This document shows positions 28,968 to 29,308 of a stretch of DNA of 64,000 bases, in pieces. Below the pieces are notes generated by a model. That model ran no database searches. It had not been told where the DNA came from and saw only the letters and a list, made by a program, of their open reading frames with translations. The DNA lies in assembly GCF_055900595.2 (NCBI RefSeq), contig NZ_CM148325.1; one strand, 5' to 3'. Each line of letters begins with the position of its first letter. Position 1 is the first letter of the stretch. A program made the translations under genes and the position numbers.

Positions 28968-29308
28968 TGGCCTTTAATGCGTAACACTATAGCCCCTTGT
29001 ATTTTTCTTTGAAAGTTATCCTTCAATAATATCGACAATTCGAAAAGGAAATCATGGGCCAGAAATCGCAACGAAAATAGCTTAATGCATTGAAAAATAG
29101 ATGAATTAATTCATATTTATGCAGAGGTGTTATTGGTTTCACTTGCAAAGTGAAAAACAAATTAAGTTATTTTTTGTAAGTTATTTTGATGATATTCGAC
29201 ATGTATCACGCTTTTTACCGCTTTTGCTGTGCTAGTTTGCTTTCAAAATGAAAGTGAAGATTCTCTTTCTTCATTTTGTAAGGTGAACGACAAATATCAG
29301 GAGCTGCG

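Follow-up and report, generated by a model that had tools for sequence, protein, structure and literature searches.

The 341 bp that separate a DeoR-family regulator gene from a divergently transcribed aldolase operon in Escherichia coli raise a simple question: which of the inverted repeats that they contain, if any, are operators of the adjacent regulator? The region in question, positions 28,968–29,308 of a 64,000-nucleotide stretch of contig NZ_CM148325.1 (assembly GCF_055900595.2; hereafter, the window), is the intergenic region between tagR and tagY, that is, the divergent control region of the E. coli D-tagatose (tag) island. A preliminary description made from the sequence alone singled out a perfect 14-bp palindrome and two further repeat elements, and proposed recurring TGAAA/TTTCA half-sites in inverted orientation as operators of the DeoR-family protein. 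The best explanation of the whole, as judged from comparative analysis, is very probably a tagR-tagY divergent switch in which the repressor TagR would bind a 17-bp palindrome lying over the transcription start site (TSS) of the aldolase operon, with auxiliary sites and CRP completing the arrangement. All binding claims made here are computational. The earlier reading is sound, but the region and its main operator were already published in 2025; what is new here is incremental and consists of the palindromic motif, some extra sites and a 73-bp architecture conserved across loci of both the ATP-binding cassette (ABC) and the phosphotransferase system (PTS) type.

Considered by themselves, the repeats say little. 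The interval was rightly described as AT-rich, with a GC content of 33% versus 50% across the whole window, and 34% of 5000 dinucleotide-preserving shuffles of it contained an inverted repeat with arms of 7 nt or longer, and 11% one with arms of 8 nt or longer. As stand-alone evidence the palindromes were therefore set aside, neither the 7-nt nor the 8-nt arms being significant (P = 0.34 and 0.11), and TGAAA plus TTTCA occur 6 times versus 2.6 expected (P = 0.04). Repeats alone are barely above chance in AT-rich DNA, and significance comes only from orthologue comparison. As to the elements themselves, the 14-bp palindrome ATGAATTAATTCAT is indeed found at 29101–29114, and the second element, TTTCACTT-GCA-AAGTGAAA, occupies 29137–29155 with 8-nt arms and a 3-nt loop. 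The third was read as two successive parts: CTTTCA-AAA-TGAAAG is present at 29240–29254, but TGAAAGTGAAG (29249–29259) overlaps it rather than coming after it. To speak of repeated TTTCAC/GTGAAA is an overstatement, as each of the two sequences occurs once; the half-site is instead TGAAAGT, set in a palindrome of 7-3-7 layout.

The orthologue comparison drew on 18 regions upstream of TagR, gathered by a scan of a genome collection and by protein searches with contig look-ups, in which identity to the TagR of the window runs from 92% down to 51%. Among their sources are E. coli E69, Superficieibacter, two Enterobacter, three Trabulsiella, Klebsiella spallanzanii, Izhakiella, Serratia, Chania, Yersinia, Sodalis, Tatumella, Budvicia, a contig labelled K. 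pneumoniae and one metagenomic genome. A motif search in orthologous loci had been suggested at the outset, and it was rewarding: in an unbiased k-mer count TGAAAGT/ACTTTCA is the top 7-mer, present in 15 of 15 diverged regions with 37 occurrences versus 1.6 expected in shuffles. When a MEME-style expectation-maximization (EM) search was seeded with every 17-mer of the window region, the best de novo seed was 29239–29255 (GCTTTCAAAATGAAAGT), which converged on the 7-3-7 palindrome ACTTTCAAaTTGAAAGT; the resulting consensus, ACTTTCAAATTGAAAGT, lies upstream of all 18 TagR orthologues, PTS-type loci included. We infer from these alignments that the TagR operator has the form ACTTTCA-N3-TGAAAGT, a palindrome of 17 bp whose half-sites are centred one helical turn from each other. 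A conserved operator fits the fact that the helix-turn-helix (HTH) region of TagR (residues 7–70) is almost invariant among the orthologues, all of which share with the window protein an N-terminal Pfam HTH_DeoR domain (PF08220) and a C-terminal, sugar-phosphate-binding DeoRC domain (PF00455); the NCBIfam matches of the window protein are likewise to models of the DeoR family.

To avoid circularity, an independent position weight matrix (PWM) was trained under a palindromic constraint on distant clades only, in which TagR is at most 66% identical, and this training recovers the same 17-bp motif. At 6 bits or more the independent PWM finds four matches in the 341-bp region (starting at 29000, 29135, 29141 and 29239) versus four in the other 63.6 kb of the window, about 0.09 being expected per region; above 10 bits, 29239–29255 stands alone in the intergenic region, with one chance match elsewhere in the 64 kb. 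The possibility of other TagR targets in the window was rejected after two of the outside matches, the strongest included, had been inspected and found to be due to chance, one starting at 5534 in a 16S rRNA gene and the other at 44565 in a coding sequence. The former, a 9.7-bit match at 5534–5550, falls in the part of the window (5530–5760) where the 16S rRNA gene starts with its 5' end (AAATTGAAGAGTTTGATCATGGCTCAG).

The predicted operator boxes travel with TagR whatever operon lies opposite. The divergent operon of Izhakiella, Tatumella and the K. pneumoniae contig encodes a PfkB kinase and a PTS, not an aldolase and an ABC transporter, and in K. spallanzanii it starts with a binding protein rather than an aldolase; in all of these the boxes are kept. 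This suggests, at the level of sequence, that tagatose pathways of the ABC type and of the PTS type alike are under the control of such regulators. It was also observed that the tagR-tagK pair (regulator plus PfkB kinase; window 27170–28967) is kept as a unit in the PTS-type loci (L017 3001–4815, L018 3001–4803 and L010 4001–5818), where the divergent operon beside it comprises a PfkB kinase and a fructose-type PTS and the upstream boxes are the same. The kinase co-transcribed with tagR may make the inducer. Boxes of the ACTTTCA-N3-TGAAAGT type recur even in Lelliottia nimipressuralis (L011 3677–4000), scoring 19.9, 14.2, 10.5 and 6.9 bits and with a 73-bp spacing between two of them, beside a DeoR paralogue only 38% identical to TagR that is divergent from a 70%-identical aldolase gene; the motif would thus be shared by a wider subfamily.

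Against this background, the third element (CTTTCAAAATGAAAG) is the predicted primary TagR operator. The 17-bp site GCTTTCA-AAA-TGAAAGT (29239–29255) scores 23.3 bits with the all-clade PWM and 21.6 bits with the independent one, is conserved in 18 of 18 orthologous regions and forms the core of an operator, tagO1, that has already been published. The corresponding 341 bp between tagR and tagY in E. coli Nissle (EcN) were the subject of a paper by Park et al. 2025 (Microb Cell Fact 24:158, PMC12226905), who named TagR and showed it to be a repressor by overexpression and a reporter, overproduction of TagR silencing the reporter of the aldolase operon promoter, Ptag. Differential RNA sequencing (dRNA-seq) in EcN located one TSS 64 nt upstream of the tagY ATG and another 11 nt upstream of the tagR ATG, and no further TSS in the region (PMC12226905); by colinear alignment the two map to 29245 (+) and 28978 (−) of the window, in agreement with the expectation that two divergent promoters must lie here. 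The tag cluster itself was described in E. coli Nissle 1917 by Ha et al. 2022, who reported that on tagatose versus glucose the aldolase operon is induced from >40-fold to >1000-fold, tagYAB by >1000-fold, and that tagRK expression responds to tagatose by a factor of only about 2 (PMC9720028). A literature search for the time after Park et al. 2025 returned no further work on TagR.

Both promoters are of the sigma70 type and point outward. Ptag (29212–29245, plus strand), placed by the EcN dRNA-seq, has the −35 element TTTTTA (29212–29217; TTTTTG in EcN), the −10 element TAGTTT (29233–29238) and its TSS at 29245, so that the primary operator starts right after the −10 element and spans the TSS. 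The promoter of the tagR-tagK operon, Preg (28978–29013, minus strand), has its TSS at 28978, the −10 element TATAGT (plus-strand positions 28986–28991) and the −35 element TTCAAA (plus-strand positions 29008–29013); the elements given in PMC12226905 are the same minus-strand match that a consensus promoter scan returned, and the ACTATA and TTTGAAA blocks at Preg are invariant in the orthologue alignment. A CRP site predicted in the same paper, TTCGA-N6-TCACG (29195–29210), is centred at −42.5 from the Ptag TSS, the class II norm being about −41.5, and agrees with the consensus (TGTGA-N6-TCACA-like) at 7 of 10 positions. Its right half, TCACGCTTTT, is invariant across eight aligned orthologous regions, and the strict full CRP pattern occurs at the same offset in 8 of 19 regions. 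The EcN reporter was catabolite-repressed by glucose (PMC12226905).

The published model predicts two 19-bp TagR operators that share 14 of 19 positions, tagO1 CTTTCAAAATGAAAGTAAA (29240–29258) and tagO2 on the opposite strand (29264–29282) (PMC12226905), in place of the 17-bp 7-3-7 palindrome proposed here, and the available text of that paper has no counterpart of the candidate sites found here over Preg, at −72 and at −98/−104, nor does it mention the 14-bp palindrome or TTTCACTTGCAAAGTGAAA. The EcN region is the same locus, with the same length of 341 bp, about 93–94% identity and the same Preg, Ptag, CRP site and tagO1/tagO2. It differs in that the window carries a rarer allele, in which tagO1 ends in GTGAA and not GTAAA, the −35 element is TTTTTA and the 14-bp palindrome is centred on TTAA.

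Does TagR have further sites? The second element is a candidate auxiliary operator (29135–29157) made up of two overlapping weak TagR-motif matches 6 bp apart. Register 1, GGTTTCA-CTT-GCAAAGT (29135–29151), scores 6.7 bits with the independent PWM and starts 104 bp upstream of the start of the main operator; register 2, ACTTGCA-AAG-TGAAAAA (29141–29157), starts 98 bp upstream and scores 9.6 bits with the independent and 9.2 bits with the all-clade PWM (per-position P of about 8e-5). A repeat scan also returned a direct repeat between the second element and the tagO1 region, with 104-bp spacing. At the same −98 offset Superficieibacter carries a site of 18.2 bits within DNA that cannot otherwise be aligned, and sites near the other register occur in K. 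spallanzanii (−104, 9.9 bits) and Izhakiella (−103, 12.7 bits). Given these sites, and given that the score drops to 0 bits in E. coli E69 and to 4.5 bits in Enterobacter ENT03, the conserved feature is not the TTTCACTT/AAGTGAAA palindrome first noticed but the TagR-type boxes inside it. That the second element functions as an auxiliary operator, which would go beyond the available text of the published model, is plausible, yet such a site would be labile and the proposal stands slightly below even.

A second candidate lies over the Preg −35 element, where a weak match (TATTTTTCTTTGAAAGT, 29000–29016) combines a perfect right half-site, TGAAAGT, with scores of 8.0 bits (all-clade PWM) and 8.5 bits (independent PWM). 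The 18-nt block TTTTTCTTTGAAAGTT over the −35 is kept from E. coli to K. spallanzanii, and in Serratia, Chania and Yersinia the homologous site is the near-perfect palindrome ACTTTCTAATTGAAAGT (23.8 bits). This suggests an autoregulatory operator that would be weak in E. coli and stronger elsewhere, and weak autoregulation in E. coli is consistent with the roughly 2-fold change of tagRK. Upstream of Ptag, the box at 29165–29181 (TTTTGTAAGTTAT), conserved in the alignment, appears to be a degenerate relic of a distal operator (AGTTATTTTTTGTAAGT) that starts 74 bp upstream of the main operator, scores 2.9 bits and retains only the right half, TGTAAGT. Ten diverged loci have a distal operator at exactly 73 bp upstream of its proximal counterpart, with the CRP site and the core promoter between the two; it reaches 13–24 bits in K. 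spallanzanii, Yersinia, the PTS-type K. pneumoniae locus, Tatumella, Budvicia and a JGI locus. Members of the Escherichia/Enterobacter clade show a 74-bp spacing and have lost all but the right half of the site. Finally, a weak downstream candidate operator (29267–29283, +23 to +39 in the leader) overlaps tagO2 and scores 7.8 bits with the all-clade PWM. The tagO2 block, TTTCTTCRTTTTGTAAG, is invariant across Escherichia, Enterobacter and Trabulsiella, and equivalent sites 28–30 bp downstream of the proximal operator are found elsewhere, those at +29 scoring 8–11 bits in Yersiniaceae and Tatumella. The initial proposal of TGAAA/TTTCA half-sites as DeoR-type operators can accordingly be kept in part: the third element is the top EM seed and the second contains weak but significant matches, whereas the 14-bp palindrome is unmatched.

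Several points weigh against a multi-operator switch of this kind. The E. coli sites are weak apart from 29239–29255, none of the others exceeding 10 bits; with the independent PWM tagO2 drops out (<4 bits, below threshold); the second element is lost in E69 and low in ENT03; and the distal partner is degenerate in E. coli. The TSS coordinates were carried over from EcN, and this strain differs in its −35 element. The orthologous regions share descent, and shuffle-based statistics overstate their independence. The operator model of PMC12226905 is described by its own authors as a working hypothesis, and the identity of the inducer and the looping considered below are inference only. It is possible, then, that the TSS-proximal palindrome alone is functional, and that the remaining matches (second element, −72 relic, tagO2 and Preg) are chance occurrences or decaying remnants in AT-rich DNA full of TTTCA/TGAAA. 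Besides the low and patchy scores, the merely 2-fold response of tagRK to tagatose and the frequency of 8-nt-arm repeats in shuffles speak for such a view; against it stand the excess of matches at 6 bits or more over expectation, the 18-bit Superficieibacter site at −98 in unalignable DNA, the strong sites at equivalent Preg, −73 and +29 positions in distant orthologues, and the invariance of the tagO2 block across three genera. A single functional operator is a possibility to be taken seriously, if one that falls well short of even, and the divergent switch with auxiliary sites is preferred.

The inverted arrangement of tagO1 and tagO2 could also be read in terms of RNA, as a 5'-terminal hairpin in the 64-nt tagY leader that affects mRNA stability or translation. 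An inverted repeat does join 29240–29252 with 29270–29282 (92% complementary), and a 10-bp hairpin pairing 29251–29260 with 29268–29277 is predicted. Against this reading, the fold of the leader is no more stable than those of its shuffles (−12.1 kcal/mol, z = 0.11), transcription starts too far downstream to include the left arm of the strongest palindrome, the same palindrome occurs at untranscribed −73 and Preg positions in orthologues, and TagR overproduction alone silences the reporter (PMC12226905). An Rfam search of the region gave one spurious snoRNA match (15 bits, against a gathering score of 45), and in view of this result and of the leader fold a structured RNA or riboswitch was rejected. 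An RNA-level role of the two inverted operators is thus very improbable.

What, then, of the 14-bp palindrome (29101–29114), the most conspicuous element at first sight? It is left outside the TagR system, since sequence, PWMs and alignment all fail to connect it: neither the all-clade nor the independent PWM gives a match of 4 bits or more. E. coli E69 has lost part of it, and in Superficieibacter, Enterobacter and Trabulsiella the segment that contains it either cannot be aligned or is missing. Two alleles exist in E. coli (L022–L026), with TTAA or ATAT at the centre, a double substitution at the dyad that may be a single dinucleotide event; most E. coli, B2-type alleles included, carry ATGAATATATTCAT, which is also a perfect palindrome. 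That both alleles are perfect is weak evidence of selection, the central dinucleotide alone being different. This can be turned into an argument that the palindrome binds a protein other than TagR, whether a dimeric transcription factor or one of the nucleoid proteins (H-NS or Fis, for example) acting on AT-rich DNA of horizontal origin, and so modulates one or both promoters, the more so as the region has 33% GC in a window of 50% and a promoter-like match overlaps the palindrome. That match, TTGAAA-16-CATATT on the plus strand at 29090–29117, was rejected as a promoter because dRNA-seq shows no TSS there (PMC12226905). Further against a different protein are the lack of conservation in E69 and other genera, including deletion of the segment in Enterobacter BIGb0383 and in Trabulsiella, the distance of 129 to 138 bp from both TSSs, and the ease with which 7-nt-arm palindromes arise in shuffles. 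The ARG box bound by ArgR has the consensus TGAAT-WWWW-ATTCA, with a 4-nt AT spacer, and is usually present in tandem. The palindrome, TGAAT-TA-ATTCA, resembles it, but an ARG box identity was rejected on account of its 2-nt spacer and single copy. Binding by another protein is accordingly improbable, and the 14-bp palindrome is, in all likelihood, incidental to the AT-rich spacer DNA in which it lies.

When compared with known regulators, TagR stands closest, among named families, to AgaR, its best NCBIfam match (E = 2e-30, below the curated cutoff). Control of the E. coli K-12 agaR-kbaZ(agaZ) region by this DeoR-family protein was reportedly worked out by Ray and Larson in 2004, whose work is cited in PMC12226905 and PMC4694137. 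The two systems have in common a divergent repressor/catabolic operon layout and a tagatose-bisphosphate aldolase pathway, together with multiple operators, a CRP site and autoregulation, which are predicted features in the case of TagR, and their boxes share a CTTTC core and nothing more. In contrast, TagR is only 25% identical to AgaR, and AgaR boxes are asymmetric repeats of the CTTTCGTTT type, not 7-3-7 palindromes; an AgaR-type operator identity was discarded, as the TagR PWM reaches at best −0.4 bits in the K-12 agaR-kbaZ intergenic region. Separately, a conserved Y(T/S)NNECFTW was noticed at the very end of every TagR orthologue (window 28137–28200, minus strand), a family-specific C-terminal extension without counterpart in AgaR. 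Cross-talk with GatR was likewise dismissed, the best TagR-motif score upstream of gatY being 1.8 bits. The K-12 gatY upstream region (L028 7206–7512) does contain ATTTCA-TTATATT-TGAAAT, a possible GatR operator with TagR-like half-sites and a different, 7-nt spacing.

DeoR, GlpR and NagC all repress through several operators, and NagC has a CRP site between its operators. TagR resembles these systems in having several predicted operators per promoter, the main one over the core promoter, with auxiliary sites an integral number of helical turns away (73 bp, about 7 turns) and a predicted CRP site between distal and proximal operators. It differs in that looping or cooperativity by TagR is only speculative and in that the in-phase distal site has decayed in E. 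coli. A sequence search for a solved HTH-DNA complex of the DeoR family returned none, the only structure found being a DeoR C-terminal domain (7L6L).

How the switch might work can be outlined from this layout. A TagR dimer at 29239–29255 would exclude RNA polymerase or block open-complex formation, because the operator starts just after the −10 element and spans the TSS. The weaker copies (+23 to +39, about −98/−104, −72 and the Preg −35) would probably add cooperativity via an oligomeric repressor, as well as mild autoregulation, and CRP at −42.5 would activate Ptag after the release of TagR. Known effectors of DeoR-family proteins are deoxyribose-5-phosphate, glycerol-3-phosphate, fructose-1-phosphate and tagatose-6-phosphate. 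By analogy with them, a phosphorylated intermediate (tagatose-6-phosphate or tagatose-1,6-bisphosphate) would be a likelier inducer than free tagatose, which would also fit the conserved co-transcription of tagR and tagK in ABC-type and PTS-type loci. More speculatively, the 73-bp phasing would put the distal and proximal sites on the same face of the helix, where they may form a short loop. A fuller scheme can be sketched in which a TagR-type multi-operator layout (two sites 73 bp or about 7 turns apart bracketing CRP and the core promoter, one at +29 and one over the regulator's own −35, with a short CRP-containing loop possible) has been kept in ABC and PTS loci and in the Lelliottia paralogue, the distal site having decayed in E. 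coli and the second element being its lineage-specific replacement. As a combined proposal this is tentative and, on balance, rather unlikely.

The genes on either side are as initially described. tagR (28137–28967, minus strand) encodes the DeoR/GlpR-family repressor and is the first gene of the tagR-tagK 'reg' operon, according to the RefSeq annotation of an identical locus. tagY (29309–30163, plus strand), preceded by the Shine-Dalgarno sequence AGGAG (29299–29303, plus strand), is the first gene of tagYABCDE and encodes a class II tagatose-1,6-bisphosphate aldolase according to RefSeq and NCBIfam, its product passing TIGR01858 with 472.7 bits at a cutoff of 443.6; the name is that of PMC12226905. 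Leftward the island encodes the sugar kinase and the DeoR/GlpR regulator, and rightward the class II tagatose-bisphosphate aldolase, a sugar-binding protein, an ABC ATPase, a permease, a tagatose kinase and an aldose 1-epimerase.

The island is accessory and lies between yhdT/panF and accC in the RefSeq annotation. Several E. coli chromosomes match the 2 kb around the interval at 100% identity, and 1422 of the 5426 complete E. coli genomes contain this stretch. Within the species, divergence is greater in the intergenic region alone, 90–95% identical in 1018 of 1421 genomes, than in the segment that also takes in the genes on both sides, 95–99% identical in 1413 of 1422. The allele of the window is rare, with 8 genomes at 99% identity or more. 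In Serratia aquatilis (L013 5109–6831) and Chania (L014 5151–6828) the tag locus also adjoins yhdT(DUF997)-panF-prmA, so that this neighbourhood is common to both and to E. coli, although the E. coli island has been described as horizontally acquired.

The tag promoter is already in use as a tagatose-inducible expression system, and a correct operator model, with a 17-bp palindrome over the TSS and auxiliary sites, would indicate which bases to change in order to adjust leakiness and dynamic range. It would also show which parts of the 341-bp fragment can be trimmed, the segment with the 14-bp palindrome looking dispensable. Biologically, the system would be an ordinary repressor-plus-CRP sugar switch that involves no new principle, and the island it serves allows E. 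coli mostly of phylogroup B2, with Nissle and many extraintestinal pathogens among them, to use the food sweetener D-tagatose for growth.

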